Virus genome (UHGV): UHGV-0113213
Length of the DNA stretch: 52,407 nt
DNA from: a virus
Reading direction: 5' to 3' (one strand)
Shown: positions 584 through 38,340 of the stretch, piece after piece
Layout of the letters: the number at the start of each line of letters is the position of its first letter
Numbering within the stretch: position 1 is the stretch's first letter
The notes under the pieces: generated by a model
Seen by the model: the letters and a program-made list of their open reading frames with translations, nothing else
Databases searched by the model: none
What the model was told of the DNA's origin: nothing
Program-made: the position numbers and the translations under genes

Positions 584-627
584 CCATTTTGTGATCTGTG
601 TTACATTTCTGGCTTATACAAAATGTA
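584..627. promoter_or_regulatory. divergent promoter region: CRP-like palindrome (590-605) plus CCATTTTGT/TATACAAAATG motif copies
   Basis: TGTGATCTGTGTTACA fits TGTGA-N6-TCACA. About 45 bp is homologous to 12160-12191, upstream of the other lipoprotein moron. Confidence 0.45.
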
Positions 628-721
628 TTTATTGATTTATATCAATATCCGAAATGTTGTTTTGTCGGATATTTAAGCCACCGGATGAACCTGGCGAGCT
701 AACGAGAATGGGGATTCAAAA

Positions 722-970
722 ATGAAAAACATGCTCAAAGTGGTATTATTCGCTGCGGCTGTTGCTCTTACTGGTTGTGCTGTTGACAAAGATGCTGCAT
801 TGCACAACCTGCCAAATAGCGGAGTAATTCCTCAAGAAATTGTCTATGATGCTAATGGTCATCTTGTCTATGACACTGAAAAACTTCCATATACTGGTCA
901 ATGGTGTCATGAACTAGATCACAATATGCGCCGCATCGGTAGCCCGTCGAATTGTGTAGCTAACTACTAA
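722..970 (+). CDS. small lipoprotein (moron; possible Cor-like superinfection exclusion protein)
   Basis: Signal peptide plus lipobox LTGC. Inserted between two tail fibre genes, with its own promoter and terminator. Confidence 0.55.
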   Translation: MKNMLKVVLFAAAVALTGCAVDKDAALHNLPNSGVIPQEIVYDANGHLVYDTEKLPYTGQWCHELDHNMRRIGSPSNCVANY

Positions 971-974
971 AAGA

Positions 975-1003
975 AAACCCCGCGCAAAGCGGGGTTATTT
1001 TTA
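975..1003. terminator. bidirectional rho-independent terminator
   Basis: CCCCGCgcaaaGCGGGG hairpin flanked by A-run and T-run. Confidence 0.7.
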
Positions 1004-4000
1004 TGACCACGATCCAGAGCTTCTTGTGACAAGGACTAGGCCTGGTCTCCTTATTGCCGCTGATGATGTATTTGTGTAGTTTTCTGTAACAGTTACGGAA
1101 ACATGCTGAGATGTAATACCTGAAACACAATGAACGGCAACGTCTGACTTGTGGGGCGTTGATGCCGCCCTTTCTATGTCTATAGTCTTTGAATTTCCGT
1201 TAATGTTTATGGTTACGTTAATGCGTCCCGACTGGTTATATGTATAGTAAGCAAGGTTATAAGGTATCATTACATAAACCGTTTTCGATAAAGCAGATGA
1301 TGATGAATCCCAATAATTTTTGGTTACACTCCTGCTACCTGACCCTGATTGCGCAGGGAATGTTGCCTCTGGAATTACTGACATACTCGCAACGTCACCA
1401 ACAAAGGATGTAGCTTCTACAGTGCCTCTGAATTTACCGTCAGTCGCGTAAACAGTACCGTTAAACACACCAGAATTAGCGTATACCGTGCCGCGTACTG
1501 TAACGTTGTTAAATGTAGCCCAGCCATCTTTAACTATTGCCCAACCTTGATCGCTACCGTTCCAATTGTATGACGTTATGACATTGCCTATTTTTGCATT
1601 GTCGATTGAACCGTCTTTAATAAACGCTTCGCGCACATACATTGCGCCGTTAGTGACATAGAAAGGTGTCTGATATGTGCCGTTTGCGGCAGTCATTAAC
1701 ACGAATCGGTCAACAAGGAAAATGCACTGCGATTGAACATCAGTACCGCTGCCAGTGAGGCCAAGTGACATTCCTGTTGCGTATTTCATACCGTTGTTAT
1801 CAGTGGCAATCTTGATTGAATATGACGCATCAACGTTACCTTTAAAATCGGTTAACGCTTTCGATGTTGTCTCGATCGCTGTTGTGTTTCCGTTAACGGT
1901 CACTTTCAATTGATCAATTTTTGTCGATAATGCCTCATCTGCCGTTGACATGGCCTGCGACCATTCCGTGATGCTTGAGTTTACATCGTCGAAAGATGCC
2001 GATATTTGAACAAATTTTTCAGCACTTGATGCCTCGTGAGTTGCGAGCGCCGTTGATATATCTGTTATTTTTGCTGAAATGTTTTCATTAATATTGGCTT
2101 CAAGTGATGCTATAGCCTCCGCGCGGGCCTGTGTTTCGTCTGCTATTGCTGTGTCAATCCTTGCTATTTCCGCTTTTGTTTTTATCTGGCCTTTCCTGTA
2201 TTTTGCCTCAATAACGGTGCTCATCTTGCTTTGCGCTATTGAGTTGTTGATAAGTGCAATCGAGGCGTTTTGCAGACTTGCTTTCGCCTGTTCTATCTTG
2301 TCACTGTTTTTATCAACATCACTTTCAACAGAACCAAGCTCCGCACTGATGCCTGATATTGCCTGGGCGCGAGCGCTTGATTCGTCGGCGATAGCTTGAT
2401 CAAGGCGGCTAACACTGGCATTTGTGCTATTTTCAAGCGTTGTTAAATCAGCTTTAACATCTGTTATTGCGTCGCTTCTTGCCTGCGTTTCATCTGATAT
2501 TGCTTTATCGAGACGAGAAACGCTCGCGTCAGTTTTGTTTTCCAGGCTGCTGATACTGGCGTTAACGTTGCTTATAGCCTCCGTTCTAGCCTGCGTTTCG
2601 GTTGCGATTGCTTTGTCAACGCGGGCGATTTCCCCTTTGGTGCTGGAGTCCATTGCGTTCATTTCTGCTGTGATGGTTTCCAGTGATTCCGCTGTCGCTT
2701 TTTTCTCATCTGCGATAACGTTGTCGATACGGTCAATCTGTGCCTTTGTTTCGTTGCGACCTTTCTTATATTGAGCGGTAAGAGTAACCCGCGTGTTAGT
2801 TTGAGCAAGCGAGTTGTTGATCAGAGCAAGCGAAGCGTTTTGTAAACTTGCTTTTGTCTGTGCCAGTTCGTTATTAACGTTTTCGTTTGATACCTCTAAT
2901 GAGTCTATTCTTACCTCATGTTTGCCTATTCCATCGGCGTTTTCTTCGACTTTTTTATAAAGGTCTTCGGTGTCTTTTTTAAGTGTATCTGTATCAGCTT
3001 TAAGGCCATCTGTAGCTGTTTTAAGGTCGGCGGTTGCTGTTTTAAGGTCGGCGGTTGCGCTTTCTATAATATCAGTGCGATCACCAAGATCCTTAATATC
3101 ACTTACCAATTCCTTAAATTGCTCTGAGTTCATCACGTCTTTGGTGACATAGTCGCTGATTTCATCGAAGTTTTCAGTTGGCTTACCTGACGCCTCAACG
3201 AAGTCTGACACGCCAAAGGCATTGCGCGTGCGCACATAAACGTAATAAGTATGGCCCGTGTTCATTCCACCGAACGTCCACTGATACCCGCGCCCGGTAA
3301 ACTGCGCAGACGTGGTTATTTTTGCAGGATCTGTAATCTGGTTTTTCCCTGCATAGTAGAACTCATACGCTGTATCAGTTGTTAGCGTTGTTTTGCTTAT
3401 CGGGTACACTGTAGCCTGAAATACACCTGGAACCCAGTTAACGCCTATTGGCGAGGCTGGTGCACCAATAACAAGATCAACAATACTTTCAGCGCCCTTC
3501 ATGCCAGTATCATTTCTTCCGCGAACGCCTAACGAATACGCGCCAGCGTCGATGCCATAAAAATCATAACTGTATTTCGTTGTTTCGTAGCTTTTAACAA
3601 CCGCACCATCTGTGTTATATATGCGGATCTCAAAGGTCATGCGATGTGTTGTTGTCTGTGTCTCCCATGTTGCGCGGCATTGAACCGTTTCAGATCCAAT
3701 GTTTACCACCTTCAGATTTTCAATGCTCGGCACGCGGAAGTGATTAAGCGTGTCGTTGTTGATTTCAAATATAGCGCCTTCATCGACTACTGCTTGTTTG
3801 TTCGGGTCATGTTGCGCTGCTTCGATGGTGTACACGCTGTTGTTTTCAGTTTCTGCTACGCTGATGATTCGACATAAAACGGGTTTTGCAGATTCGGTTG
3901 ATACAGCAAAAACAGTACCGTTCCGAATCCATGCCGGGGCTGCTGCCAGTGTGATTTTGTTCCCGTTAACACCAGTGATCTGATGTTTTTTAAATTTGCC

Positions 4001-5578
4001 ATCGCCATCAAGTAAACTGATGGTGTCGCCTGCTGCAATGTATTCTGAATCGACTTTATCGACCGTTATCACTTTCCCATTGTTCGCCACGATACGACCG
4101 CCTAAACGCGCGCCTGCGCGGTTATTGTCGAGGATCTCGATTATATCCCCTGGCGTAAAGTGAATCGCATCACGGGCCATTTTAAACGTGAATTTTGACG
4201 GCTCGCGTTTTGCTGTTTCTATCAGCCATTTACCAGCGCGGTGCGCTTGCCCGCGTGAAGTGCACCCGAACGCCTCCAACGTGGTTTCGTTATAACCATC
4301 ACGGGCGATTAGCTCATCATCTGCCACATACTCTTTTGATTGCTCCCAGCCGTTTTCCGGGTCAGTCCATGATACAATCACGGCGTTGTAGCATTCTGCT
4401 CGGGCGATACTTGAACGAGTGAACGCACCATCAACGACGTTTGCGTTTGTGATGGTGGCGATCGGGTCTTGTGGCGCATCAATCATCACGGTAAGGCGTT
4501 GTCCGTCCCATAACGCGATGCCTCGGAACATCCCGGCGATATTGTCCAGTAAATCGCGGGCGCTCATTTGCTCTGTAATGTAAGCATTAAGCGTCATGCG
4601 AGGCTCAAGGCCACCGTAACCATCATCAACCAACTGGTCGCAGTATCGGGAGAGCGTATATAATGCGCCGTCGTCAACGTCAATATAGCCAGCATGGCGG
4701 GCAAGACCGAAACGCTCGTTTTTAACCAGGTAACGGAAGATCCACGCGGGGTTATTGGTGTACGCCTTCTTGAAGCCGCCAAGCCACAAACCGGAATAAG
4801 TGCGCGTTTCCGGGCTATAGTTATCAGGAACGTCAACAATCAGCCCGCGCAGGTGATAAGTGCGGGTAGGTGTATCAGTGTACTGATCATGATCAATAAC
4901 CGCGCCAGCTACAGCTGTGTGGGGATATGACAAATTATCGTCGATTATTTCGCTGTAACTACTCCATCTCGTATCATTCTGCAATAGATCGCTTGTGCTA
5001 TCGGCCGTTACACGGCGAACGCGAATATCAAACGGCTTTTCATCTGGTGCATTGATAATATGCGCTTCAAGATATTCTCCTCTGATCTTGCCGGGGCCTA
5101 TAGTGACATCTTTAACAAGCGTCCACGTAGAAGAAGATGAAGGCTTGACATCAATCATCATCATAACCGATGTGTTATGTTGATTGCTTTGCTCGTCAGA
5201 TTGTACAAGTGAATCGACGCCGATATTCAGGCGAACGCGCGTAACGTTAGGATCTGATACAGTCCTGATTATTGGGGTATCGTGTTTCACCTGAGCGTTA
5301 ACAATAACGGTTGATTCAATGGCGTTAAAACCGTTAATAGGTGATTGATCTAACGTGCCGTTACGCCACGCCACGCTAACACCAGGGACACTTGTATTGC
5401 CGTTCGCGTCTGTAACAGGTGTATCATTAAGCATCACGCTATTTAATGGCGCTTTTGTATTTACAGGTCCATAAATCGGACCTTCAGAAATAATATCAAG
5501 TACACGATAAAATTGTTTATGGTATAGATTATCGTTAATTAAAGTCGGTGTTTTTGCTTTACCGCCGCCGCTACTCAT
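1001..5578 (-). CDS. J: host specificity / tip attachment protein J-like, with ~400 aa coiled-coil insertion
   Basis: N-terminus and central regions align with lambda gpJ (MSSGGGKAKTP..., LNDTPV, GCTSRGQAHRAGKWLI). 1525 aa versus 1132 aa in lambda. Confidence 0.85.
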   Translation of the reverse strand: MSSGGGKAKTPTLINDNLYHKQFYRVLDIISEGPIYGPVNTKAPLNSVMLNDTPVTDANGNTSVPGVSVAWRNGTLDQSPINGFNAIESTVIVNAQVKHDTPIIRTVSDPNVTRVRLNIGVDSLVQSDEQSNQHNTSVMMMIDVKPSSSSTWTLVKDVTIGPGKIRGEYLEAHIINAPDEKPFDIRVRRVTADSTSDLLQNDTRWSSYSEIIDDNLSYPHTAVAGAVIDHDQYTDTPTRTYHLRGLIVDVPDNYSPETRTYSGLWLGGFKKAYTNNPAWIFRYLVKNERFGLARHAGYIDVDDGALYTLSRYCDQLVDDGYGGLEPRMTLNAYITEQMSARDLLDNIAGMFRGIALWDGQRLTVMIDAPQDPIATITNANVVDGAFTRSSIARAECYNAVIVSWTDPENGWEQSKEYVADDELIARDGYNETTLEAFGCTSRGQAHRAGKWLIETAKREPSKFTFKMARDAIHFTPGDIIEILDNNRAGARLGGRIVANNGKVITVDKVDSEYIAAGDTISLLDGDGKFKKHQITGVNGNKITLAAAPAWIRNGTVFAVSTESAKPVLCRIISVAETENNSVYTIEAAQHDPNKQAVVDEGAIFEINNDTLNHFRVPSIENLKVVNIGSETVQCRATWETQTTTHRMTFEIRIYNTDGAVVKSYETTKYSYDFYGIDAGAYSLGVRGRNDTGMKGAESIVDLVIGAPASPIGVNWVPGVFQATVYPISKTTLTTDTAYEFYYAGKNQITDPAKITTSAQFTGRGYQWTFGGMNTGHTYYVYVRTRNAFGVSDFVEASGKPTENFDEISDYVTKDVMNSEQFKELVSDIKDLGDRTDIIESATADLKTATADLKTATDGLKADTDTLKKDTEDLYKKVEENADGIGKHEVRIDSLEVSNENVNNELAQTKASLQNASLALINNSLAQTNTRVTLTAQYKKGRNETKAQIDRIDNVIADEKKATAESLETITAEMNAMDSSTKGEIARVDKAIATETQARTEAISNVNASISSLENKTDASVSRLDKAISDETQARSDAITDVKADLTTLENSTNASVSRLDQAIADESSARAQAISGISAELGSVESDVDKNSDKIEQAKASLQNASIALINNSIAQSKMSTVIEAKYRKGQIKTKAEIARIDTAIADETQARAEAIASLEANINENISAKITDISTALATHEASSAEKFVQISASFDDVNSSITEWSQAMSTADEALSTKIDQLKVTVNGNTTAIETTSKALTDFKGNVDASYSIKIATDNNGMKYATGMSLGLTGSGTDVQSQCIFLVDRFVLMTAANGTYQTPFYVTNGAMYVREAFIKDGSIDNAKIGNVITSYNWNGSDQGWAIVKDGWATFNNVTVRGTVYANSGVFNGTVYATDGKFRGTVEATSFVGDVASMSVIPEATFPAQSGSGSRSVTKNYWDSSSSALSKTVYVMIPYNLAYYTYNQSGRINVTININGNSKTIDIERAASTPHKSDVAVHCVSGITSQHVSVTVTENYTNTSSAAIRRPGLVLVTRSSGSWS
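2080..2760. repeat. ~108-bp imperfect tandem repeats inside J (coiled-coil heptad units D(K/Q)AIxxExxAR...ASVSRLD)
   Basis: Five to six protein-level repeats visible in the translation, with corresponding DNA periodicity. Confidence 0.6.
3015..3056. repeat. perfect 21-bp tandem duplication inside J
   Basis: gctgttttaaggtcggcggtt occurs twice; encodes ATADLKT twice. Confidence 0.85.
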
Positions 5579-5592
5579 GGTTAATTCTCCTG

Positions 5593-6797: not shown

Positions 6798-6799
6798 GA

Positions 6800-7522: not shown

Positions 7523-7558
7523 TGTGATCTGCGTCACGCTAAATCATACCAAAATGGA
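7523..7558. promoter_or_regulatory. CRP-like palindrome TGTGATCTGCGTCACG plus ATACCAAAATGGA motif
   Basis: The minus-strand reading gives TGgTATGAT, an extended -10 pointing into L. Confidence 0.4.
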
Positions 7559-7633
7559 TTGATCGCGGTTTTTACAATATGTATATTTTACTCAAACGGA
7601 AGCATAGTTAACAAAATGGCGCGGAGGTGCGTT

Positions 7634-7822
7634 ATGACTGAAAAGCTATGGAAGTTGACGGTATTCATGACAGACGGTAGGGAAAAGGTTATCGCCCTGT
7701 ATGACGACGAGGGTGAAGCATTGGTTGACGCGCTTTTACTTGCTGAGGATGACCGCCTTTTGGGATACCAGATCGAACCTGTCAAATATGAGGCTAACAA
7801 AAATGAAAAAATACAGTCTTGA
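7634..7822 (+). CDS. hypothetical small protein (moron gene A)
   Basis: GGAGG RBS. Paralogous to the N-terminal part of gene B (7803-8150). Confidence 0.5.
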   Translation: MTEKLWKLTVFMTDGREKVIALYDDEGEALVDALLLAEDDRLLGYQIEPVKYEANKNEKIQS

Positions 7823-8150
7823 TGTGTGGTTAAGTGGTAGCAAGGAGTGTTTCGGATTATTTGATAGCGAAGAAGTAGCCCTGGAAGAAGGCAGGATTCT
7901 TGAATGTAGTTTAGGCCATCCAGTGAAATATGCTGCTAATCCGGTACAGATAGTTGATGAGGTGGAAGATATGAACCCGAAAGATATTAATGGTAGCTTC
8001 ACTGCTTATTATGCAGATTCTATGGACCAGTCTTGCCCTGGTGAAATACACGCAAAAGGTTTCCCGGCTGACGATCCAGAAGCAAAACGCGAATACGAAA
8101 AAGCGGCGAAAGATTTCTGTATCGATAACCTTTCAGCATTCGATAAATAA
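7803..8150 (+). CDS. hypothetical protein (moron gene B)
   Basis: ATGA overlap with gene A; shares a ~50 aa domain with gene A. Confidence 0.5.
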   Translation: MKKYSLDVWLSGSKECFGLFDSEEVALEEGRILECSLGHPVKYAANPVQIVDEVEDMNPKDINGSFTAYYADSMDQSCPGEIHAKGFPADDPEAKREYEKAAKDFCIDNLSAFDK

Positions 8151-8159
8151 GGCGGCAAC

Positions 8160-8408
8160 ATGGGGCGGCGCAATCACGGTGATTATGTGTACACGTTGAA
8201 ACAGGCCGCCCGCCTCATCGGTTATCATGAACACGAATTTATTGATTTGCTGATTGAGCGCGGGATACTGTACCAGGTCTGTTTAACGCTGTACCCGAAA
8301 GCGAAATACCTACATGAAAAGTTATTCATCATCATGACGGATGAAAACCAGGTTAACCATTCATTCGTCACTGATAAGGGCGTTAATTATCTGCGTGATA
8401 ACTTATAG
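8160..8408 (+). CDS. hypothetical protein with possible HTH (moron gene C)
   Basis: YTLKQAARLIGYHEHEFIDLLIERGIL has a helix-turn-helix-like pattern. Confidence 0.4.
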   Translation: MGRRNHGDYVYTLKQAARLIGYHEHEFIDLLIERGILYQVCLTLYPKAKYLHEKLFIIMTDENQVNHSFVTDKGVNYLRDNL

Positions 8409-8534: not shown

Positions 8535-8568
8535 AAAATAACCCCGCTTCGCGCGGGGTCGTGTTTAT
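8535..8568. terminator. bidirectional rho-independent terminator
   Basis: CCCCGCttcgcGCGGGG hairpin with flanking A/T runs. Confidence 0.7.
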
Positions 8569-9129: not shown

Positions 9130-9172
9130 TTACATTTTGTATATATCTTTACGCGCTTCTACGCGAAAAATA
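9130..9172. promoter_or_regulatory. motif copy TTACATTTTGTATATA plus element TTTACGCGCTTCTACGCGAAAAATA
   Basis: The 25-bp element recurs with 2 mismatches at 21418-21442. Confidence 0.35.
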
Positions 9173-9200
9173 AGATCATTGTCACAATGATTATAGCTAG

Positions 9201-9282: not shown

Positions 9283-9438
9283 ATGAAACGCTATGTAGTA
9301 GTAATGCTAAATAACGCATTCGAACAAGTGGAAATAGCAATCGTTAAGGGTTTCGACGACGCATTCAAATACGGTCAATTCATGATGAATGCGAAAGAAG
9401 ATGAATACCGGGACTTCTTCCTGAAGGCACTTAACTAA
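9283..9438 (+). CDS. hypothetical 51 aa protein (moron)
   Basis: Strong RBS GAAGGAGG; below the 60 aa ORF-track cutoff. Confidence 0.5.
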   Translation: MKRYVVVMLNNAFEQVEIAIVKGFDDAFKYGQFMMNAKEDEYRDFFLKALN

Positions 9439-9455: not shown

Positions 9456-9710
9456 ATGAAACTGGTAGCGATTGACAGAAATCTGAAAGCACAGAAAAAC
9501 GCACAGGACCGGATCATCAAGAAAGGTAAGGAATTACTTAAAGCCTTTCTGAGAAAAGAAGTTTACCCCAAAAAGTTACGCGACGGTTACGGATACAAAA
9601 TGGATATCAATCTTGATTGGAGGCTGTTTAGCGAAGATTTGAAGGTTTGGTTAATTGTTGAGCACCGTGCCTATAACAAGTTATGTGGCGTGAAAGGCAC
9701 TCATAAGTGA
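9456..9710 (+). CDS. hypothetical basic 84 aa protein (moron; possible toxin-like partner)
   Basis: RBS present; K/R-rich; paired with the preceding gene. Confidence 0.45.
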   Translation: MKLVAIDRNLKAQKNAQDRIIKKGKELLKAFLRKEVYPKKLRDGYGYKMDINLDWRLFSEDLKVWLIVEHRAYNKLCGVKGTHK

Positions 9711-9764: not shown

Positions 9765-9795
9765 AAAATAACCCCGGCATTGCACCGGGGTTTAG
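9765..9795. terminator. bidirectional rho-independent terminator
   Basis: CCCCGGcattgcaCCGGGG hairpin followed by a T-run. Confidence 0.7.
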
Positions 9796-12159: not shown

Positions 12160-12219
12160 TGTGATCTGTGTATCTATTTTATACAAAATGGCTTTACTTC
12201 AACGACTCCATTTTGTATA
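12160..12219. promoter_or_regulatory. CRP-like half site plus 40-bp palindrome TATACAAAATGG-N16-CCATTTTGTATA
   Basis: Candidate promoter TTTACT-N17-TATAAG driving the lipoprotein gene at 12267. Confidence 0.45.
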
Positions 12220-12266
12220 AGGAAGCTAAAGGGAATGGTCAGTAAATCAAGTTAGCGTGGTGGGTT

Positions 12267-12926
12267 ATGAAACGGTTAGCAAAAGTGGCAATGATTGCGG
12301 CGGTATTGGGTCTGGTTGGTTGCAATGAGGATAATGAAAAAGCGCCTATAGTGACCAATCAAGAGCAACAAGCATTAGTAGAGAAAAATGCTAAATGGCT
12401 TGCAGAACAACAAGCAAAACAAGCCGCATACGATGCACAGTTAGAAAAAGAAAATGCTGGTAAACAGTGGCTTGTAGTTGAAAGAAAAGATGATATGCAG
12501 GACGCAAAAAACGTATTCCTTTTTGTGAAAGCAGAACAATTCAGCGGAAGTCTTGATGCTTTCCCGACACTGAAGGCACAGGATAAGAATAAACCGGTAT
12601 TAACAATCGCTTGCCAGGGTAATAAAACAAAAATGTTCGTAGCATGGTCACACCATGTAACTGACGCCGGGGACACTACTTATATTAACTACCGGATCGG
12701 CGTTCACAAAGCTGTAGCTACTGAGTGGTGGCGGTCAACTAATTATAAAGCTCTTGGATTATGGGACGGCAAAAAAGCCATCCCAATGATTAAAAAACTG
12801 GTTAACGAAAAACAATTCATCATTGAAGTAGTGCCGGAAGCTGGCGACATTGAGAAAGCAGTGTTTAACATTGATGGTCTTTATAACCACATCGACAAAG
12901 TGAAAAACGCTTGCAACTGGAATTAA
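12267..12926 (+). CDS. lipoprotein (moron)
   Basis: Signal peptide plus LVGC lipobox. Confidence 0.6.
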   Translation: MKRLAKVAMIAAVLGLVGCNEDNEKAPIVTNQEQQALVEKNAKWLAEQQAKQAAYDAQLEKENAGKQWLVVERKDDMQDAKNVFLFVKAEQFSGSLDAFPTLKAQDKNKPVLTIACQGNKTKMFVAWSHHVTDAGDTTYINYRIGVHKAVATEWWRSTNYKALGLWDGKKAIPMIKKLVNEKQFIIEVVPEAGDIEKAVFNIDGLYNHIDKVKNACNWN

Positions 12927-12936: not shown

Positions 12937-13311
12937 ATGAAAAAAATAATCAAAGCGGTTCTCATTGGTGTTATGGCTTTAGCTCTTACAGGGTGCGCAA
13001 GATCAACTGATTTCGTTAAGTTAGCTGATAAAAATTTGCAAGTTGGAATGACTTGTGAGCAAGTGAATAAAATAATGGGGGAACCACAAAGAATCGAGCA
13101 TGACGGTAATTATAGTTATCACGTATGGTATTCAGTAACCAGCACGATAGGATTTACTTACATGGATGTTGAAGAATTATCCCCTTCAAGGGTTATCGCA
13201 AAGTTTGATAACTGCATCCTAAAAGAATGGAAAGATCGCAGTAAGGCAAAGTCTGTATACAATACAATCACACACAGTTCACCAGGTACAGCAATTAAAG
13301 ATTTCAATTAG
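12937..13311 (+). CDS. BamE/SmpA-OmlA-like lipoprotein (moron)
   Basis: LTGC lipobox; GMTCEQVNKIMGEPQ resembles the BamE motif. Confidence 0.5.
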   Translation: MKKIIKAVLIGVMALALTGCARSTDFVKLADKNLQVGMTCEQVNKIMGEPQRIEHDGNYSYHVWYSVTSTIGFTYMDVEELSPSRVIAKFDNCILKEWKDRSKAKSVYNTITHSSPGTAIKDFN

Positions 13312-14011
13312 CAAAACGCCCGGATCTACCGGGCTTTTCTTGCTCACGATTTTTCATTCTTTCTAGTGCCTTTTTAGCGGCCTCCATTTGCTCGTCATAA
13401 GCACGTTTATTTATGTGAATGTTTGGCTTGCTTTTCTCGTTTCTTTCGTCTGGCGGCGTTTTAGCGCGTACAGCGGCCCTATATCCGGTCATTGTCATAT
13501 TCCATGCTTCCGATTCTGACAAGCCCAGGTGAGCAACGGCAGAATAGACGAATTCAAGGACGTTAAAAGTCGGCTTATATTCCCCTTCCGGGATTTCCCC
13601 GGACTCTTCTTCCGGGCCATCACCAATAAGACCGTGGTACATGCAGTGCTGCGCAAGCGTGATGATATCCTCGATCGGCATTAATCCGGGCTTTAACTTT
13701 AACTTACCCGAAGGAGTAAACCAGCATTCGCCCAATAACGGGCCTATTTCGTCGTCTGAGCAACATTTCAGGATGTGCATTGATGTCTGAACTATTTCAC
13801 CATAACACCGCGCCAGAATGCGATTGCGTAGGTCTGGATCTGCTGGCAATCGTGATGGATATTTGCCGCCGTGGATAAGTGCGAAATATTCGACAAGCTC
13901 ACTATCGTTGCCGATTTTAGCCATCGCAGCAAAGCAAGGATTAAACTCATAGCGCTTACCGTTCACCACGGCAGCAAATTGTCCTGTACGAACATGGATC
14001 ATAGTATTCAC
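13304..14011 (-). CDS. tail assembly chaperone-like protein
   Basis: Lies between the major tail protein and the tape measure gene, the conserved G/GT position; no frameshift site identified. Confidence 0.45.
   Translation of the reverse strand: MNTMIHVRTGQFAAVVNGKRYEFNPCFAAMAKIGNDSELVEYFALIHGGKYPSRLPADPDLRNRILARCYGEIVQTSMHILKCCSDDEIGPLLGECWFTPSGKLKLKPGLMPIEDIITLAQHCMYHGLIGDGPEEESGEIPEGEYKPTFNVLEFVYSAVAHLGLSESEAWNMTMTGYRAAVRAKTPPDERNEKSKPNIHINKRAYDEQMEAAKKALERMKNREQEKPGRSGRFAN
13317..13342. terminator. rho-independent terminator
   Basis: CCCGGatctaCCGGG hairpin followed by CTTTTCTT. Confidence 0.6.
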
Positions 14012-28298: not shown

Positions 28299-28577
28299 TT
28301 ATGCCATGCGTGCAAATTCAAGTGATTTGCATTCGTAGTCTTCCTCTGCCTGTTCGATGACTGCCATCATCATTTCGTTTGCGTTGTTGAATGCGTTGCT
28401 TTGTGCGAACTTGTCGGCTCCACCTTCTTCTTCGAACTCCGCGTTGTTTGCTGCAATGTAGTGATATTCGATGTTGTTCAGGTAAGGGCTTGCAGCGTGT
28501 GCTGGGTCTTCTTTCTCCACCATCTCCCAAAATGCGTTTAAGCGAGATTCGACTTCTTTGTTAATCCAGCGTTTCAT
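28299..28577 (-). CDS. hypothetical protein
   Basis: Preceded by a promoter-like site. Confidence 0.4.
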   Translation of the reverse strand: MKRWINKEVESRLNAFWEMVEKEDPAHAASPYLNNIEYHYIAANNAEFEEEGGADKFAQSNAFNNANEMMMAVIEQAEEDYECKSLEFARMA

Positions 28578-28612: not shown

Positions 28613-28674
28613 TTTATAACAAAATGGCACTGCCGAAACAATGCCATTTCGTAAACCTTGTGATACAGATCACA
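28613..28674 (-). promoter_or_regulatory. promoter TTGTTT-N17-TATAAA overlapping motif CCATTTTGTTATAAA; perfect CRP-like site TGTGATACAGATCACA at 28659-28674
   Basis: Read directly from the sequence. Confidence 0.5.
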
Positions 28675-32156: not shown

Positions 32157-32504
32157 TTAGGCTTCATTGTCGTCACCTTCGAAATACTGCTCAATCGCAC
32201 GTTTGACGTTCATTTCTCGCTGATAATTGTTACCGCTATAGATTGCGGCTGCCGATACGTGATCGATAATTTGCTGTAATAAATAAGGATGAATTTTTAT
32301 TTTTTCATCAAGGACAATGCGAGATGGCTTAGGTGCTGTAGCAATATCATCAACGATTTCTATCTCACCACCTCCGCCGCAGCGAGGACAAACGAATTTA
32401 TCACCTTGATACAGCATGATGCCGCAACCTTTTTCGGTTTTTACGACCATGCCATCGTCGTCGCAGTTTTCGCAATACAGCCACCGAATATTAATTATTT
32501 TCAT
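32157..32504 (-). CDS. zinc-ribbon protein (CxxC...CxxC)
   Basis: CENC...CPRC. Confidence 0.35.
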   Translation of the reverse strand: MKIINIRWLYCENCDDDGMVVKTEKGCGIMLYQGDKFVCPRCGGGGEIEIVDDIATAPKPSRIVLDEKIKIHPYLLQQIIDHVSAAAIYSGNNYQREMNVKRAIEQYFEGDDNEA

Positions 32505-32694
32505 TGTCGTTACTCCGTCCGTAAATATGGACAGGCTCAACTGGTACTGCTGGCAATTCGCCATCATTTAACTCGCTCGCCATGCCTAATATTAAACGCG
32601 CTTCAGCACCAGTGACTTTCTTGCACCATGCGTCGCCTGTTTTATCTTCAAATAAGATAACGGCAAACTGATCGTTTATTTCCAGCTTATCCAT
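32491..32694 (-). CDS. hypothetical protein
   Basis: TAATG coupling to Q. Confidence 0.35.
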   Translation of the reverse strand: MDKLEINDQFAVILFEDKTGDAWCKKVTGAEARLILGMASELNDGELPAVPVEPVHIYGRSNDNENN

Positions 32695-33422
32695 TATTCA
32701 CCCCGTGTCACTCGTTTGATTTCGCTTTCCGCGCGAGATTCTTCTTTGAATAGCTCCGCTATGGCGTCTTCATAGAAAACCCTGTATTTCTTCCACCATG
32801 TTGATCTGCTTACCGGGAAAACAAGCTGGTTAACAGCCTGCCGGACGAGATCTACAGGGAAACGCGAGTACCCGCGCCCGCCGCAGTGCTGGCACGTTTT
32901 GAATACTGGCATTTCCGCCGCTTCGCTGGCTGCTTTATCCGGTACTTCGCCACGCCCCTTGCACCTCTGGCAATGGTTTTTAACGTAGCCTTTGCCGTTG
33001 CACCGCGAGCAAACTGTCGATGTGTATTCACAATATGGATTCGGTAAAAGCCCGTTACCTCCGCACTTAGGGCAAACCTTTTCGGTAGCCGCACTTTGGC
33101 AGTAATCCCGAAACGCGAAAACGGCAACAAGAATAATAAGATCATTGCGTTGTTCTTCATTTAATTCCATCACGTATTCGTAATCTTTCGCCATAACCCT
33201 TAAACGCTCTGTAAGCAAAATTACGGCCCTGTGTTTTTCAGCTTGCGATAGCTCCATTTTCCCTAAAAAAGCACTATAGCCAAGCTCTACGCGCGATTGC
33301 GCCATACCAGCGGCGGTAAGCGCATCCGTCGTATTAAGTGCATCCGGGGATGTTCCCCGGCTTTCGTCTGATAATCGCGGTGATTTGGGAAAGTGGAATT
33401 TCAGAATGGATTCTAAATTCAT
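32694..33422 (-). CDS. Q: late antiterminator Q (lambda Q family)
   Basis: MNLESILKFHFPKSPRLSDESRGTSPDAL...AAGMAQS matches the lambda Q N-terminus; Cys4 zinc site. Confidence 0.85.
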   Translation of the reverse strand: MNLESILKFHFPKSPRLSDESRGTSPDALNTTDALTAAGMAQSRVELGYSAFLGKMELSQAEKHRAVILLTERLRVMAKDYEYVMELNEEQRNDLIILVAVFAFRDYCQSAATEKVCPKCGGNGLLPNPYCEYTSTVCSRCNGKGYVKNHCQRCKGRGEVPDKAASEAAEMPVFKTCQHCGGRGYSRFPVDLVRQAVNQLVFPVSRSTWWKKYRVFYEDAIAELFKEESRAESEIKRVTRGE

Positions 33423-33604
33423 TATTTACCCCCATAGCGAGCAATAAGGCGTTTGCGATCAGAAATGGTTTGCACCAGTTTTCTTTCAAGCTCTTTCAGC
33501 GCAAGTAATTCCTGCATGTGAAAAGCCTGGATTCGTCTGACTGTCGCTAAATCATGCTCGTCACGTTGAACATCTATTTGCAGATCTTTAATTTCGTTTT
33601 TCAT
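33422..33604 (-). CDS. hypothetical 60 aa coiled-coil protein
   Basis: ORF. Confidence 0.35.
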   Translation of the reverse strand: MKNEIKDLQIDVQRDEHDLATVRRIQAFHMQELLALKELERKLVQTISDRKRLIARYGGK

Positions 33605-34008
33605 TGCTCACCCCACATATTAGTCGCATATTCGTTAATATCCGGTAGCAGGTCGCCGCGTTCGCATACCTTAATAAACAATCGCCCGCCTTTTACCTTC
33701 CGGCAGCGGACAATTTTTATTGAGTCGATTTGCCCATCATCATTCCAGAATCCGGCACAAGTAAGGCTGTCAAAAAGGCATTTTGGGATATTATCAAGAT
33801 CTCTGACCCGGTTATCCGGCGGCGCGGCATAAATGGCGATTGCCAGTCGGCAAGATAGGTTAATGTCTAAATTTAATAATTCGATGATGTCTTTTACTTG
33901 TTCCCGGTATTCCTTCCCCACTTCGCTGATATAGTGAAAACCTCGTGAATGTCGGTAATATCGGTTATTAGATGGCGGGTAAGGTAGGCTAAATGTATAC
34001 TCGTTCAT
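33601..34008 (-). CDS. rusA: Holliday junction resolvase RusA
   Basis: LPYPPSNNRYYRH...DLDN..K...D.L...GFW.DD matches RusA. Confidence 0.85.
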   Translation of the reverse strand: MNEYTFSLPYPPSNNRYYRHSRGFHYISEVGKEYREQVKDIIELLNLDINLSCRLAIAIYAAPPDNRVRDLDNIPKCLFDSLTCAGFWNDDGQIDSIKIVRCRKVKGGRLFIKVCERGDLLPDINEYATNMWGEQ

Positions 34009-34610
34009 GCTGCCTTTCTCCTTAAGGCGTCCAATTTTGCCTGATAGATGTTTATTAGCTCCTTACATTCTGCGATCGTCCATTTATGCGTATCATTGTT
34101 GTTCTCCAGCGCTTCCACCCTGGCGAGGCCAATTTTTCGAATCAGTGCTGGGCGATAGGCTTGTATGTTTCCGTCTAATGTCTGATTGCAGTGCCTACAT
34201 TGTTTATGGACGTTATCTTCATTGAAGCGAAGGTGTCCGGCGGCGGCGACCGTCCTGTAATGCCCCGCATCGTATCCGCATTGCTCACCGTAGTAAGTCC
34301 CGCAGGATATGCACGGCAACCGCGCGTCACGTTCGCGGATATAGGCATTAAATACCGCTTGTGCCTGCTTTAACCAATAGCTACGCGGATTTAACTGCTT
34401 CCGCTTCCGGTTGCGTTCTTCCCGCTGGCTATCACGGCGTTTCTTCCGTTCCATAGCCTTCATAGCCTTCTCACGGTCGCGGCATAACTGGTCAAATTTC
34501 AGTTCTTCCAGGCATTCGTCGCTGCACCACGTTTGATTGTGATATTTAGGCTCAAAAAAAACGCCGCAGCATTTGCAACGGCGTCTTATTGGTTTCTTAG
34601 GGTTTTGCAT
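34005..34610 (-). CDS. ninG: NinG / Rap recombination endonuclease
   Basis: RRRCKCCG, PRSYWLKQAQ, LPCISCG, DAGHYRT, RFNE.N.HKQC are conserved with lambda NinG. Confidence 0.85.
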   Translation of the reverse strand: MQNPKKPIRRRCKCCGVFFEPKYHNQTWCSDECLEELKFDQLCRDREKAMKAMERKKRRDSQREERNRKRKQLNPRSYWLKQAQAVFNAYIRERDARLPCISCGTYYGEQCGYDAGHYRTVAAAGHLRFNEDNVHKQCRHCNQTLDGNIQAYRPALIRKIGLARVEALENNNDTHKWTIAECKELINIYQAKLDALRRKAA

Positions 34611-34624
34611 AAAAACCACCCCAA

Positions 34625-34801
34625 TTATTTTTGATTCTCTGTTTCGTTCAGCCTTTCGGCGTGTCCGGCCCTTAGCGAGTGATCTACACATTCGTTGTAC
34701 TCGTTACATTCTCCTTTTTTCGTGCTGCATACATTGCACATTGCACGCATGACGCTTTCTCGTTCATAGTCGTCATGCCATTGGTAATCATCAAAAGACA
34801 T
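34625..34801 (-). CDS. hypothetical Cys-rich 58 aa protein
   Basis: RBS AAAGGAGAGAGC; lies directly downstream of the nut-like site. Confidence 0.45.
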   Translation of the reverse strand: MSFDDYQWHDDYERESVMRAMCNVCSTKKGECNEYNECVDHSLRAGHAERLNETENQK

Positions 34802-34830
34802 AATGCTCTCTCCTTTTCAGGTGATTTCTA

Positions 34831-34863
34831 CGCATTTCAGCGCTGCCGGATTTTTAAAGAGCA
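34831..34863 (-). promoter_or_regulatory. nut-like site: boxA TGCTCTTTAAAAATCCGG plus boxB-like hairpin CGCTGAAATGCG
   Basis: The boxA matches the nutR candidate (43322-43339) base for base over 18 nt. Confidence 0.55.
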
Positions 34864-34879
34864 TTTTGTTTGCTTGAAG

Positions 34880-34959
34880 TATACAAAATGGATACCCCCA
34901 AACAAGGCAAAAAGCGCCATTATGTGATCCGCATCACGCAATGATGCCATTTTGTAAAC
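34880..34959. promoter_or_regulatory. promoter region: TATACAAAATGGA ... CRP-like TGTGATCCGCATCAC ... CCATTTTGTAAAC
   Basis: Inverted motif pair flanks the palindrome. The minus-strand reading gives -10 TATACT. Confidence 0.45.
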
Positions 34960-34960
34960 T

Positions 34961-35725
34961 TTAGTCCGGTAAAATGCGGTTAAGCGTAGTACGAGTGATG
35001 GCCCGGTCGTTAGCCAGGAATACAGCACGGGCAAAGCCGCGCGGCGTTAGTGAGCGGATCATCTTAGTGCGTTTCGACTCTCCTCCTAACTTCGCGTGCT
35101 GTTTGCTGTCTTCCCATTCATCCGGCATAGGTACAGGCCGGAATAGCGGCTGCTTAAATCCATTCCCGCACCAGATACAAGTTTTCTTCGTGTATGCGTC
35201 GCGGGCAGCTATGTATTCAGGGAAAGCAGGGTGTTTGTCGTCTTCAGGCAGGTAGCCACCGTAAGCGCACGGGTTGAAGATAAAATCAGGTTTGCGCCAT
35301 AACGTTGACAGCGCACCTACCGGATTTTCCACCATCCACGGGACGTGGTACATATCAGCAAGCGTTTCTACCAGTTTTGCGTTGTATACCGCCTTCTGCT
35401 GGAAGTAAGGTTCTTTTTTCCGCTTATCAGCAAACCAGCGAGCGCCGGACACCGCAAGATCGTCGCACGGAGGAAAGCCCAGGATAATGTCAGGATCTGG
35501 ATAAACAGACAATTCAGGGGAGAACATTACCAGGAAATGGCTGTCAATCCATACGTTGATATACTCAATGTTCGGATGAATGATTTTGACGCCTTCATAA
35601 TCGCCGTGATTAGCGCCATCATAGTTGAAGCAATAGCATTTATAACCAGCGTCGGCCCAATCTTTAACGGCGTATCCGCTGCCGTCGTACAGCGACCACA
35701 CCACCCAATTTCTAAGCCCACTCAT
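34961..35725 (-). CDS. C5-cytosine DNA methyltransferase-like protein (short, no obvious TRD)
   Basis: GFPPC (motif IV PC), ENPVGA (motif VI ENV-like), LYDGSGY (motif I-like). Confidence 0.4.
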   Translation of the reverse strand: MSGLRNWVVWSLYDGSGYAVKDWADAGYKCYCFNYDGANHGDYEGVKIIHPNIEYINVWIDSHFLVMFSPELSVYPDPDIILGFPPCDDLAVSGARWFADKRKKEPYFQQKAVYNAKLVETLADMYHVPWMVENPVGALSTLWRKPDFIFNPCAYGGYLPEDDKHPAFPEYIAARDAYTKKTCIWCGNGFKQPLFRPVPMPDEWEDSKQHAKLGGESKRTKMIRSLTPRGFARAVFLANDRAITRTTLNRILPD

Positions 35726-36225
35726 TTCCTACCCTCGAACGTAAAGTAGCGGCGCATGATGATAGTGATCACCGTTACCGCCGCCATTTTTGAGATGAAT
35801 TGCATAGCTGATATTTCCGGCATGAATGCCATAAACGATAGCGTTGGGAAAATTAACGCATCGCCAATGGCGGACGCTATATTTGCAGGCCAGCGTTTAG
35901 AATCGAAATCACCAGGTAAAACCCGGTAAACGCCGCCAGAAATAAGCGCACCGGAAACAACCGCGACGAATGACGCGATCGCCACCATTCCGGCGTCGTA
36001 ATTTATCAGCACCGTGATTGCGCCAGCGGCGGCGCATGTTGTAGCCGACCATTTAAGGCCGCCGTCATATAACAGAAAATCACGAATCATCATATTGACA
36101 CACACGGCGGCTACCGTGGTGATCGGAATTACCCACGGGCCACAGTGGTTAACAATAAGATTGATGATAACGAAAACGGCGACATAAACGCAGGCTAATA
36201 ACCTGTCAATTGCCACCATCTTCAT
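35722..36225 (-). CDS. YhhQ/DUF165 (queuosine-precursor transporter family)-like membrane protein
   Basis: SKRWPANIASAIGDALIFPTLSFMAF aligns with YhhQ SRRWWLAPTASTLFGNVSDTLAFFFIAF; polytopic. Confidence 0.5.
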   Translation of the reverse strand: MKMVAIDRLLACVYVAVFVIINLIVNHCGPWVIPITTVAAVCVNMMIRDFLLYDGGLKWSATTCAAAGAITVLINYDAGMVAIASFVAVVSGALISGGVYRVLPGDFDSKRWPANIASAIGDALIFPTLSFMAFMPEISAMQFISKMAAVTVITIIMRRYFTFEGRK

Positions 36226-36400
36226 TTAGCTCTTCCTCCCGATACGCTAATATCTGTTCGGCCTTAAGCGCGTTATAAGCAATAAGGTCTATAAGAGTGT
36301 CGAGCGGATCAGTTCCATTAGCGAGAATAGCCCCTAAACGCGCTTCCTTGAGGCAAATCATTAGATCCCATACATCAAGTGGGGTTAAATTCGCATTCAT
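36206..36400 (-). CDS. hypothetical protein
   Basis: ORF. Confidence 0.35.
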   Translation of the reverse strand: MNANLTPLDVWDLMICLKEARLGAILANGTDPLDTLIDLIAYNALKAEQILAYREEELNEDGGN

Positions 36401-36517
36401 CTTAGCGTTGAAAATAGCCGCTATTTTTGGCGCTGATTTTTCTTCTTTTCGATCGTATCCGTTTTGCTCCCTCTTGCCTCGATAGTTTCAGCCGCAAGTC
36501 TCAGCAATTCAGCCGCT

Positions 36518-37057
36518 TTATTCATTTTCTGCACCTCTTGCATATAGCTCTTTACGTGTTATCTGCGTGAAAATACATTCATGTCTGCATCGTGGATGCC
36601 AGATCAGGAACAAGCTCCCCTTATTGTTCCCGCTTACTGGTTTCCCTGTTGCAGCATTGATAAACGCCAGCCGCCCGCGCGTGATTAATCGGCATTCGTT
36701 TGCCGTCTCCACGCCGTTCATAAACCAGCTAACAGAAATGTCAGCGGGCAATAACATTACGCATCCGATATGATTTCGGCTGTGTTCAAGCGCCGCTTTA
36801 TCAACGAATGGCCCCGGATTAGAATATGGCGGATTCATCCAGACATACTCACCAGGCATCGCCACCGCTCCCCACGGATAATGGAGCGTGTCCATTTCTT
36901 CGGTTATATATCGCGGTATTAATGCGTTTGCCTTGTTTGCCGCCACATCCGCGACGAACTCGAATTCTCGATCCATTCCTCTAAAAACGGGTTTTGGCGT
37001 TTGCCATAAGTCCTTTATTTCTTTCGGCGTATGGCTGCCGCCGTAATCATTTTTCAT
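36518..37057 (-). CDS. phage N6-adenine DNA methyltransferase (Dam_N6A-like)
   Basis: NPPYS motif IV; size matches phage Dam-like methyltransferases. Confidence 0.7.
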   Translation of the reverse strand: MKNDYGGSHTPKEIKDLWQTPKPVFRGMDREFEFVADVAANKANALIPRYITEEMDTLHYPWGAVAMPGEYVWMNPPYSNPGPFVDKAALEHSRNHIGCVMLLPADISVSWFMNGVETANECRLITRGRLAFINAATGKPVSGNNKGSLFLIWHPRCRHECIFTQITRKELYARGAENE

Positions 37058-37066
37058 TACGCCCCC

Positions 37067-37555
37067 TTAGAAATAATCCTGATCTGTTCCCCAGCGGTTA
37101 TTCAGATACCCCACCAACCACACAAAACGCTCAATACTGATTAGCGGGGCGACCTTGCGATAATGCTTATCTAATATCAGCCGCGTGGCTTTATCGCTGT
37201 AGCCGTTCTTCTCTACCTCCGCTTTGCAGGCCGAAAGCGCGGCGCGGGCGGCAGTCTTTACGGCGTTAAATTGCGGCTCTGACATATTGAATAAGGCCAT
37301 AGGATCACCATGTGTCAGTCCAATCCGGCGCGGCAGTCCAGCAAAAACCAATGAATGCGCTAACAGCCAATAAAGCGCGGGCTGCAAAAAGAATATTCCC
37401 AATGTCGTTAAATTCAGGAAGCGACCACGTAATAAACATAGCCCCAGCATAATAACACCGATAACAGTCATGGCCGCCAGGAAAACAAAAAGCGTAGCCA
37501 AAAGCCACGCCCCCAACCAGTTAAAAAAGCTCTTAAGCATTTTAAACGTCCTCAA
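37067..37555 (-). CDS. membrane protein (3-4 TM)
   Basis: Hydrophobic N-terminal half. Confidence 0.4.
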   Translation of the reverse strand: MRTFKMLKSFFNWLGAWLLATLFVFLAAMTVIGVIMLGLCLLRGRFLNLTTLGIFFLQPALYWLLAHSLVFAGLPRRIGLTHGDPMALFNMSEPQFNAVKTAARAALSACKAEVEKNGYSDKATRLILDKHYRKVAPLISIERFVWLVGYLNNRWGTDQDYF

Positions 37556-37745
37556 TTACCCCGCCTTTCACACGCTCTTTAATATCCCATACGTGAGGCT
37601 TGCATATTTCCTGATAATAGTGATCCGGCCTGCTGCCGAAATACCATTTGCCATCCATATAAAAATAAACGCCAGAATAATTTCCTGGCGCTGCCTTTGT
37701 TGCTGCTTCTGGAATTTTCCATTCCATGTAATGTTTAAATTTCAT
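37542..37745 (-). CDS. hypothetical protein
   Basis: ORF. Confidence 0.3.
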   Translation of the reverse strand: MKFKHYMEWKIPEAATKAAPGNYSGVYFYMDGKWYFGSRPDHYYQEICKPHVWDIKERVKGGVIEDV

Positions 37746-37929
37746 GAGTTTTTAAATAACCCCTTCTGAATGCTTTGATGTAAAGTCCTAGCCTTCTTAT
37801 ATGCTGAACGCCATCAATGATGCGCACTAAATAAATTGCACCGTTTGTGTCAGATACAAAATGACAGCCAAAACCAATACCAACCAACTTCAGGTTGTCA
37901 GGTATTCTATAATCAGTTTTCTGTTCCAT
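37735..37929 (-). CDS. hypothetical protein
   Basis: ORF. Confidence 0.3.
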   Translation of the reverse strand: MEQKTDYRIPDNLKLVGIGFGCHFVSDTNGAIYLVRIIDGVQHIRRLGLYIKAFRRGYLKTHEI

Positions 37930-38027
37930 GCCTCACCTCATATGGTATTCAATAAACCACCTGATAAACAGACATAAGGCAATAAAACCCCAGCAACAGC
38001 ACATATAAAACAATGTGTCGTCCATAA

Positions 38028-38246
38028 TTAAGCCTCAATAACACCGTAATCGAACGTGCCTAAATACCGTTCGATACTTACAACCTCAATACCATCAATG
38101 CACCGTTTCCACACAGACACCTGGCTTTCATTTTCTCTGAAGTGCATATTAGAAAGCACTTCATCGGCTGGGTAGCCTTTCCCGGCGACGTAGGCATCGT
38201 GACCTACGCCACCTTCTACGCAATAAAGCATCAATTCGCGTTCCAT
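38028..38246 (-). CDS. hypothetical protein
   Basis: Internal start MERELM has an RBS. Confidence 0.35.
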   Translation of the reverse strand: MERELMLYCVEGGVGHDAYVAGKGYPADEVLSNMHFRENESQVSVWKRCIDGIEVVSIERYLGTFDYGVIEA

Positions 38247-38282
38247 CTTGTTTCCTCCGTGCCGTAAACCTCTTAATTTCAG

Positions 38283-38340
38283 TTTACAAAACGGATATGC
38301 GATCGCAATACAAAATGTATATTTATGTGATCGCAATCAC
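38283..38340. promoter_or_regulatory. motif copies TTTACAAAACGG / ATACAAAATGTA plus CRP-like TGTGATCGCAATCAC
   Basis: Read directly from the sequence. Confidence 0.4.

Follow-up and report, generated by a model that had tools for sequence, protein, structure and literature searches.

Introduction

In the lac P1 promoter of Escherichia coli, the site of the cyclic AMP (cAMP) receptor protein CRP has nine of the ten core bases of its consensus; the core lies 17 nucleotides (nt) from the -35 hexamer and the centre at -61.5. CRP sites of class I and class III promoters are centred near -61.5, -71.5, -82.5 or -92.5, and weak -35 hexamers are typical of the promoters which depend on an activator. 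The site of FNR, a host regulator from the protein family of CRP, is TTGAT-N4-ATCAA and is centred near -41.5 of its promoter, which is the class II distance. The present work concerns seven palindromes of the CRP type in the viral genome UHGV-0113213, a stretch of 52,407 nt that was analysed as a whole (hereafter the window). Judged from their sequence, the palindromes are probably binding sites for host cAMP-CRP, built into sigma-70-type promoters that are specific to one family of phages.

Two further kinds of phage element bear on these sites. The morons of lambdoid phages, such as bor and lom of lambda, have their own promoter, gene and terminator. The stoperators of cluster A mycobacteriophages are asymmetric and occur in 20-30 copies, within transcribed regions and in one orientation. 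Host CRP itself is known to act on phage T1, where cAMP-CRP represses the pir promoter in vitro and the dam and recE promoters are likewise inhibited (PMC6737242).

The window, a prophage, belongs to the mEpimmI group, whose members are temperate E. coli siphoviruses that are mEp021-like, Nus-dependent and non-lambdoid. Its identity to the phages MagusPhagus, mEp010, 013, 021, 044, 515 and 554 is 84-88%. A set of 5,426 complete E. coli genomes contains 35 with a match to it, the closest being that of strain M1/5 (94.6%). In a human-faeces collection, mEpimmI phages are reported to be as frequent as lambdoid phages. Their lysogens are reported not to be inducible by ultraviolet light (UV), and their CI-like repressor is without the usual cleavage site (PMC11893012). 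The same study reports no CRP, no promoter motif and no mapped promoters, transcription starts, repressor operators or host inputs. Control of promoters by CRP-type sites is known in kind, and it would be new for this common gut phage family, which has no described regulatory map.

Sequence match and enrichment of the palindromes

An earlier note on this DNA had listed six palindromes of the form TGTGAT-N4-ATCACA. All six are present where it placed them, but the list overlooked the intergenic site at 43184-43199, and one of its members, 12160, is merely a half-site (Table 1). All seven sites are intergenic. Nine or ten of the ten core bases of TGTGA-N6-TCACA are found in six of them, as is expected of a CRP site; 12160 falls short of this.

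The note had also proposed that the sites be scored with a weight matrix. For this, 17 classical CRP sites of E. coli were combined into a symmetrised and approximate CRP matrix. The six best matches in the window are 34923, 590, 7523, 43184, 28659 and 38326, all of them intergenic, and their scores of 13.7-17.4 lie in the upper part of the range of the training sites (7.6-16.7) or above it. Five matches reach a score of at least 14, against 0.34 expected from 200 first-order Markov simulations of the window composition, none of which reached five. Similarly, TGTGAT-N4-ATCACA with at most two mismatches occurs nine times against 2.58 expected, a count that was reached in none of 100 shuffles. 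Three of the pattern matches (31685, 39933 and 46618) are taken as chance occurrences; they lie in coding DNA, and the first two vary among relatives like coding sequence, while 46618 is covered by a single relative.

Distance of the palindromes from a family-specific promoter motif

The promoter motif of this phage consists of CCATTTTG directly before a TAnnnT hexamer (TAAACT, TATACT, TATAAG, TATAAA or TATATT) and resembles the spacer end and the -10 of a promoter family. With at most one mismatch, CCATTTTGTA occurs 26 times in the window, against 5.8 expected, in both orientations and at some places antisense to genes. A canonical extended -10 was considered for the motif and rejected, since its TG directly adjoins the hexamer and does not keep the register of the TGn element. 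That the motif promoters are real is supported by two copies, one of which forms the early promoter before nutL, while another directly precedes the boxA of nutR2.

The palindromes do lie beside this motif, as had been noted before, and at set distances from it. In the window together with 128 retrieved loci, site and CCATTTTG+TAnnnT are 38-41 nt apart in 120 cases (39-40 nt in 118 of these) and 15-16 nt apart in the other 54; no other gap occurs. The DNA between site and promoter is 23-50% identical between modules, which is nearly random, and the gap is nevertheless exact; the spacing is thus maintained without sequence homology. Identical spacing was seen at the three sites that were read in mEp021. 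In the window, five of the palindromes (12160, 28659, 34923, 38326 and 43184) share a single layout, with 39-40 nt to the -10 and 17-18 nt to the -35.

When transcription is assumed to start at the seventh base after the -10-like hexamer, the centres of the seven sites fall at -59.5, -59.5, -60.5, -60.5, -60.5, -63.5 and -82.5. The value of -63.5 belongs to 7523, which lies 20 nt from its -35 hexamer. The predicted arrangement resembles that of class I promoters of the lac P1 type, in which a single TGTGA-N6-TCACA has its core 17 nt from a weak -35 and is centred some 60 bp before the start; the -35 hexamers TTGTTT, TTGCGA and TTTACT of the phage are weak, and its sites equal or exceed the lac site in quality (9-10 of 10 core bases). 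The phage promoters differ from lac P1 in the CCATTTTG that they share directly before the -10, in the spacers between -35 and -10 (16-17 nt versus 18 in lac) and in the predicted centres at -59.5 to -60.5.

Other arrangements of the motif were observed as well. The reverse motif TACAAAATGG often abuts a -35 hexamer on its upstream side. Two inverted motif pairs of 36 bp, TACAAAATGG-N16-CCATTTTGTA, lie at 12182-12217 and 28618-28653 in opposite genome orientation, each beside a CRP-like palindrome, and may represent back-to-back overlapping promoters or the site of a larger protein complex. At 590, 7523 and 12160, a copy of the motif on the minus strand has its -10 only 4-7 nt from the palindrome, so that these three sites would cover about -4 to +17 of predicted minus-strand promoters facing the tail-fibre, L and tape-measure genes.

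Conservation of the palindromes in relatives

IMG/VR supplied the related loci, 46 of them surrounding the Q-like gene and 44 surrounding tail gene L, from which orthologous regions were extracted; the overall identity of the relatives is 85-95%. The mean column entropy of six sites in 24-46 relatives is 0.22 in the TGTGA/TCACA core, 0.64 in the six-base spacer and 0.32 in the intergenic flanks, and it is lower where the CRP matrix is more informative (Spearman -0.44, p 0.04). The arms are constrained and the central bases are not, as in CRP sites. The centres of the palindromes are the least constrained DNA of their surroundings and are bordered by the most constrained, which is the signature of a dimeric DNA-binding protein that ignores the centre.

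For example, 7523 has a core entropy of 0.03 and a spacer entropy of 0.72 in 43 relatives, with the variants TGTGATCTGCGTCACG, TGTGATCGCCATCACG, TGTGATCTCAATCACG and TGTGATATGCGTCACG. Likewise, 34923 has values of 0.10 and 0.88 in 46 relatives, with the variants TGTGATCCACATCACG, TGTGACATTCATCACA and TGTGACGCTAATCACA. The sixth position of this site varies between T and C and TGTGA is invariant, which fits the 5-bp half-site of CRP. The 590 site is conserved in 33-34 relatives. Half-sites persist where pairing between the arms is broken, as TGCGGGGTAGATCACT at 28659 and TGTGATCGGAATTACT at 38326, and also at 12160 and 590.

Phages beyond the family served as a negative control. In 36 more distant phages with a tail gene L of about 71% identity (566 kb; IMG/VR loci L092-L127), strong matrix matches occur at 0.04 per 10 kb versus 1.2-1.3 in the mEpimmI family, and CCATTTTGTA, which is present at 1.3-1.5 per 10 kb in the family, is absent. 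The CRP-like sites and CCATTTTGTA therefore travel with the regulatory backbone of the mEpimmI phages and not with the tail module. These distant phages are without both motif types and without the morons, and are usable as a negative control only. More distant relatives were sought in order to learn whether the CRP core persists longer than the phage motif; a search of genome contigs with the Q-like protein found nothing.

An FNR-type box beside one of the sites

Between the 590 site and the gene of the first tail-region moron, which encodes a lipoprotein, lies a box of the FNR type with a perfect consensus (Table 1). A -10-like GATATT (668-673) follows 22 nt downstream of it. Among relatives the arms of the box are conserved and its centre is variable. 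Of 13 relatives, 11 have 41 bp between its centre and that of the 590 site, and two have 40 bp. A conserved box for a second global regulator of the host, at the textbook distance from the predicted promoter, strengthens the view that host factors act here. The arrangement recalls the tandem CRP and FNR sites of promoters of the ansB type (class III), in that the FNR box is predicted at -41.5 and the CRP-like site lies 41 bp upstream on the same face of the helix. It differs in that the CRP site of ansB lies at about -91.5, in that the phage -10 (GATATT) and start are predicted ones, and in its target, a prophage lipoprotein gene.

Host CRP as the probable ligand, and the alternative explanations

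The earlier note had offered a choice between host cAMP-CRP and a dimeric regulator encoded by the phage. Such a regulator would use the scattered palindromes either as operators or for activation, and their likeness to the CRP consensus would be convergent. The matrix scores, the conservation, the lac-like spacing, the FNR box and the annotation favour host cAMP-CRP; the annotation of the closest prophage by the Prokaryotic Genome Annotation Pipeline (PGAP) lists no Crp/Fnr-type protein. The phage does encode several uncharacterised winged-helix or helix-turn-helix proteins, and a small MarR-like helix-turn-helix protein beside the repressor, a 185-aa MarR/Lrp-like protein (48740-49297) and the CI-like repressor are candidates for the regulator. 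Fixed arms and a free centre suit any dimeric helix-turn-helix protein, the sites accompany the family-specific CCATTTTGTA and are missing with it from distant phages that share tail genes, and 43184 lies in the immunity region, where it overlaps an operator-like ACTTGCA. The stoperators provide a model both for such a regulator and for CCATTTTGTA, as many copies of a short protein-binding motif near transcription units; the palindromes of the window, in contrast, are symmetric, seven in number and fixed about 60 bp upstream of promoters. Operators of CI and Cro are adjacent palindromes that cluster over the early promoters of the immunity region, whereas six of the seven sites are single and lie outside this region. 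In addition, the distance of 17 nt to the -35 is the one found in lac, conservation extends over the 5-bp TGTGA and leaves the sixth position free, and the FNR box beside one site indicates that host factors are already in use at these promoters. A phage regulator would also share its sites with host CRP, which from the general knowledge of its affinity is expected to bind so near its consensus. On balance, this origin of the sites is unlikely.

A further alternative is that the palindromes act as hairpins, whether of RNA or of single-stranded DNA; they would then serve in termination, processing or transcript stability, or as stem-loops with which minus-strand transcripts begin. This reading draws on 34923, which is the tip of a 16-bp imperfect stem followed by UUUUU, with a folding energy of -20.7 kcal/mol (z -2.4). 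This hairpin corresponds to the predicted terminator t4 of mEp021 (TERM_4, MH706966), and its four variable pairs all still pair across 34 unique relatives. Moreover, predicted transcripts of the minus strand would have 590, 7523 and 12160 at their 5' ends. A stable hairpin with a U-run is found at 34923 only; the other six palindromes form 6-bp A/U-rich stems without U-runs, their folding does not stand out from shuffles (z -0.5 to -1.5), and their best fold often does not use the palindrome. The half-sites at 28659, 38326, 12160 and 590 outlive the loss of pairing, the core arms show no compensatory double changes, and hairpins leave the fixed 39-40 nt to the -10 and the match to one protein consensus unexplained. 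RNA hairpins were rejected for six of the seven sites on folding and half-site survival and are kept as a second role of 34923, which probably acts at the RNA level too; as an account of all the palindromes they are very improbable. It is likewise very improbable that the sites are without function, as chance matches or passengers of a copied promoter cassette that close kinship alone conserves. In favour of this, the relatives are 85-95% identical, so that much of the intergenic alignment does not vary at all. The three additional matches inside coding sequence look like chance, and some common origin is suggested by the CCATTTTG that the modules share and by the 36-bp inverted pair common to two of them. 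The enrichment, however, is far above shuffles, the centres are locally the most variable columns between fixed arms, the spacing is exact despite near-random DNA between modules, and the distant phages have almost no matches.

Several points weigh against host CRP as the ligand. The weight matrix is approximate, and the conservation tests have limited power because the relatives are closely related. At 34923, the conserved terminator-like hairpin could alone explain the conservation, which hence does not prove protein binding there. The 28659 site was found in 25 relatives, nine of which retain the promoter-distal half alone (TGCGGGGTAGATCACT); 12160 is a half-site in the window, with better versions such as TGTGATCTAGATCTCT among relatives; and 43184 overlaps an operator-like palindrome and has an FNR-like left half. 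The starts are derived solely from -10-like hexamers, and the resulting centres at -59.5 to -60.5 are 1-2 bp short of the canonical -61.5, while that of 7523 is 2 bp beyond it. A simple sigma-70 scan called, among the promoters with CRP-type sites, only 7559-7587, along with the minus-strand early promoter 42387-42359; the motif promoters were not called because their -35 hexamers are too weak. Finally, the sites are always paired with a phage-specific, bidirectional motif, so that a phage-specific factor could take part.

Gene cassettes and regulatory elements around the sites

Nearly all transcription of the window is carried by the minus strand. From right to left, the repressor gene is followed by an N-like gene, ERF, SSB and many small genes with methyltransferases, then by ninG, rusA, the Q-like gene (32694-33422), further small genes and, at last, the lysis, head and tail genes. 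The replication genes point rightward from about 43386. The coordinates of the sites and of the features around them are collected in Table 1.

Table 1. CRP-like palindromes of the window, predicted promoters and neighbouring features
Feature	Position	Strand	Sequence or elements	Remarks
CRP-like site 590	590-605		TGTGATCTGTGTTACA	Core bases 9/10; matrix score 17.3; centre about -82.5 of predicted + start at 680; also about +2 to +17 of predicted minus-strand promoter before tail-fibre gene
FNR-type box	632-645		TTGATTTATATCAA	Perfect consensus; centre -41.5 of predicted lipoprotein-moron promoter
Moron 1, 82-aa lipoprotein	722-970	+		phrog_12984 lipoprotein; followed by two-way terminator 976-996
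CRP-like site 7523	7523-7538		TGTGATCTGCGTCACG	Matrix score 16.8; centre about -63.5 of + promoter 7559-7587; also about -2 to +14 of predicted minus-strand promoter before tail gene L
Predicted promoter	7559-7587	+	TTGATC-17-TATATT	Precedes moron 2
Moron 2	7634-8408	+		Two unknown proteins and KilAC fragment; terminator 8541-8559
CRP-like site 12160 (weak)	12160-12175		TGTGATCTGTGTATCT	Left half only; core bases 7/10; score 9.6; centre about -60.5 of + promoter; gap to -35 17 nt; also about -4 to +12 of predicted minus-strand promoter before tape-measure gene
Predicted promoter	12193-12221	+	TTTACT-17-TATAAG	CCATTTTG directly before -10; precedes moron 4 (VasI/TagO-like and BamE-like proteins)
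VasI/TagO-like protein	12267-12926	+		
BamE-like protein	12937-13311	+		Terminator 13318-13334
Two-way terminator hairpins	976-996, 8541-8559, 9770-9792, 13318-13334			One per opposite-strand moron cassette
Gene of accessory cassette	28577..28299	-		phrog_7287, function unknown; cassette between Q gene and lysis genes
Predicted promoter	28613-28641	-	TTGTTT-17-TATAAA	Before gene 28577..28299
CRP-like site 28659	28659-28674		TGTGATACAGATCACA	Perfect core; matrix score 14.5; centre about -60.5 of minus-strand promoter 28641..28613; gap to -35 17 nt
Predicted promoter	34905..34878	-	TTGTTT-16-TATACT	nutR2 boxA TGCTCTTTAAAAATCC (34863..34848) within about 15 nt
CRP-like site 34923	34923-34938		TGTGATCCGCATCACG; minus strand CGTGATGCGGATCACA	Matrix score 17.4; centre about -59.5 of minus-strand promoter 34905..34878; gap to -35 17 nt
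Imperfect hairpin	34909-34948	-	16 bp and five U	CRP-like core 34923 at tip; just upstream of promoter-like element and nutR2
Predicted promoter	38281-38308	-	TTGCGA-16-TAAACT	Before gene 38246..38028 (phrog_28996) and downstream small early genes
CRP-like site 38326	38326-38341		TGTGATCGCAATCACG; minus strand CGTGATTGCGATCACA	Matrix score 13.7; centre about -59.5 of minus-strand promoter 38308..38281; gap to -35 17 nt
CI/LexA-like repressor gene	42511-43158			Rightmost of right-to-left gene order
CRP-like site 43184	43184-43199		TTTGATGCAAGTCACA	Intergenic; FNR-like left half, CRP right half; score 16.8; centre about -60.5 of early + promoter; gap to -35 18 nt; overlaps operator-like half-site ACTTGCA and region just upstream of repressor gene
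Early promoter (predicted)	43218-43245	+	TTGATC-16-TAAACT	'PL' side in mEp021 nomenclature
Promoter motif, about 17 intergenic copies	e.g. 617(-), 9132(+), 9203(-), 12182(-), 12208(+), 28618(-), 34882(-), 34947(+), 38285(-), 42389(+), 43232(+), 46075(-), 47213(+)		CCATTTTG+TAnnnT	

The tail region holds four short cassettes on the opposite (+) strand, each closed by a strong two-way terminator. With four such terminators inside the late tail operon, the late transcript needs antitermination or re-initiation. The stem AACCCCG...CGGGGTT is common to three of the four. With their own promoter and strong two-way terminator, and with products of the envelope or exclusion type, the cassettes are similar to the morons of lambdoid phages; they differ in that three of the four have a CRP-type site at activator distance, and one also an FNR box, which makes the input from the host explicit. 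Lipoproteins of the moron 1 type mediate superinfection exclusion in the mEpimmI family (PMC11893012). The remaining cassette, near 9171, has a weak CRP-like site in the window and a better one, TGTGATGAAGATCTCA, in 11 relatives. In the window, the place which TGTGATGAAGATCTCA occupies in those relatives holds a perfect palindrome of 17 bp, ATCATTGTCACAATGAT (9175-9191), flanked by two motif copies that face each other. For 9456-9710 (+) of this cassette, the annotation of the closest prophage gives a ParE family toxin-like protein; apart from an open reading frame of 51 aa at 9283-9438, it shows no evident antitoxin beside it.

An identical 16-nt boxA-like TGCTCTTTAAAAATCC is present at 34848-34863 (-) and 43322-43337 (+), which are the nutR2 and nutL of the mEp021 paper, each downstream of a promoter of the motif type. 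The ninF/ninG, rusA and Q-like genes lie downstream of the former, while the early promoter at 43218-43245 is followed by operator-like palindromes, the nutL boxA and the replication genes. The hairpin at 34909-34948 can form G-U pairs in the minus-strand RNA only.

In the immunity region, ACTTGCA occurs in three copies and resembles a true operator half-site. The operator-like palindromes based on it, ACTTGCAGACAAGG and CTTGCAAAGACGCAAG, lie downstream of the early + promoter (coordinates 43189-43195 on the minus strand, 43243-43256 and 43267-43282), and are candidate operators of the repressor or Cro. A 27-nt imperfect inverted repeat (43189-43215 / 43223-43249) gives the repressor-promoter region a rough symmetry. 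An 8-bp inverted repeat, TTGACTCG ... CGAGTCAA (42350-42387), surrounds the minus-strand early promoter TTGACT-17-TATATT (42387..42359) and is a further candidate operator; a CRP-type site was sought upstream of this promoter and none was found.

Predicted regulation and its significance

If host cAMP-CRP occupies the sites, CRP at about -60 would use the alpha C-terminal domain of RNA polymerase to recruit the enzyme (class I) at the promoters 12193-12221(+), 28641-28613(-), 34905-34878(-), 38308-38281(-) and 43218-43245(+). At 7559-7587(+), it would bind 2-3 bp farther upstream. At the lipoprotein moron, CRP at -82.5 behind FNR at -41.5 would form a tandem, class III arrangement. The sequence match, the enrichment, the pattern of conservation and the fixed spacing are observed; the occupancy by CRP, the transcription starts, and the direction and size of any regulatory effect are inferred.

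Scarcity of glucose would accordingly be expected to raise the expression of the three moron cassettes (the exclusion-type lipoprotein, the VasI-like and BamE-like proteins and the unknown ones), of the accessory cassette, of the transcript with nutR2, ninG, rusA and the Q-like antiterminator, and of the early transcript toward the replication genes. In the tail region, one CRP dimer may activate a moron promoter while blocking the start of the opposing minus-strand promoter. The suggestion that many operons are wired to CRP takes a more definite shape: it would concern the early promoter, two internal promoters, the accessory cassette and three of the moron cassettes. In this way the nutritional state of the host probably bears on parts of the phage. 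A similar case is the E. coli phage T1, several of whose promoters respond to host CRP, which links the behaviour of the phage to sugar uptake (PMC6737242). There the effect is repression, shown by experiment and exerted via the regulator Pir. The mEpimmI phage is from a family unrelated to T1, and for most of its sites the geometry, on the strength of sequence, predicts activation.

A bolder proposal, which we consider doubtful, is that host cAMP-CRP is a direct input to the lysis-lysogeny switch of the mEpimmI family and does not serve accessory genes alone. The CRP dimer at 43184-43199 would then activate the early promoter from about -60.5, occlude the DNA just before the repressor gene and vie with the operator-like element for binding there, and a second dimer at 34923-34938 would drive the nutR2-equipped transcript with the Q antiterminator gene. 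If so, a shortage of carbon would push prophages into lytic growth, or sway the choice made on infection, with no involvement of the SOS response.

Should a phage protein use the sites instead, it would be a phage regulator that occupies the sequence niche of host CRP. If the sites are those of host CRP, the exclusion lipoproteins and the envelope-type accessory genes would follow the carbon and oxygen status of the gut through CRP and FNR, and the early promoter and the Q-bearing transcripts might follow it as well. The seven graded CRP-type sites on one small genome would then form a natural series, and the predicted sites would offer a handle on the inducing signal for a phage family that is indifferent to UV.

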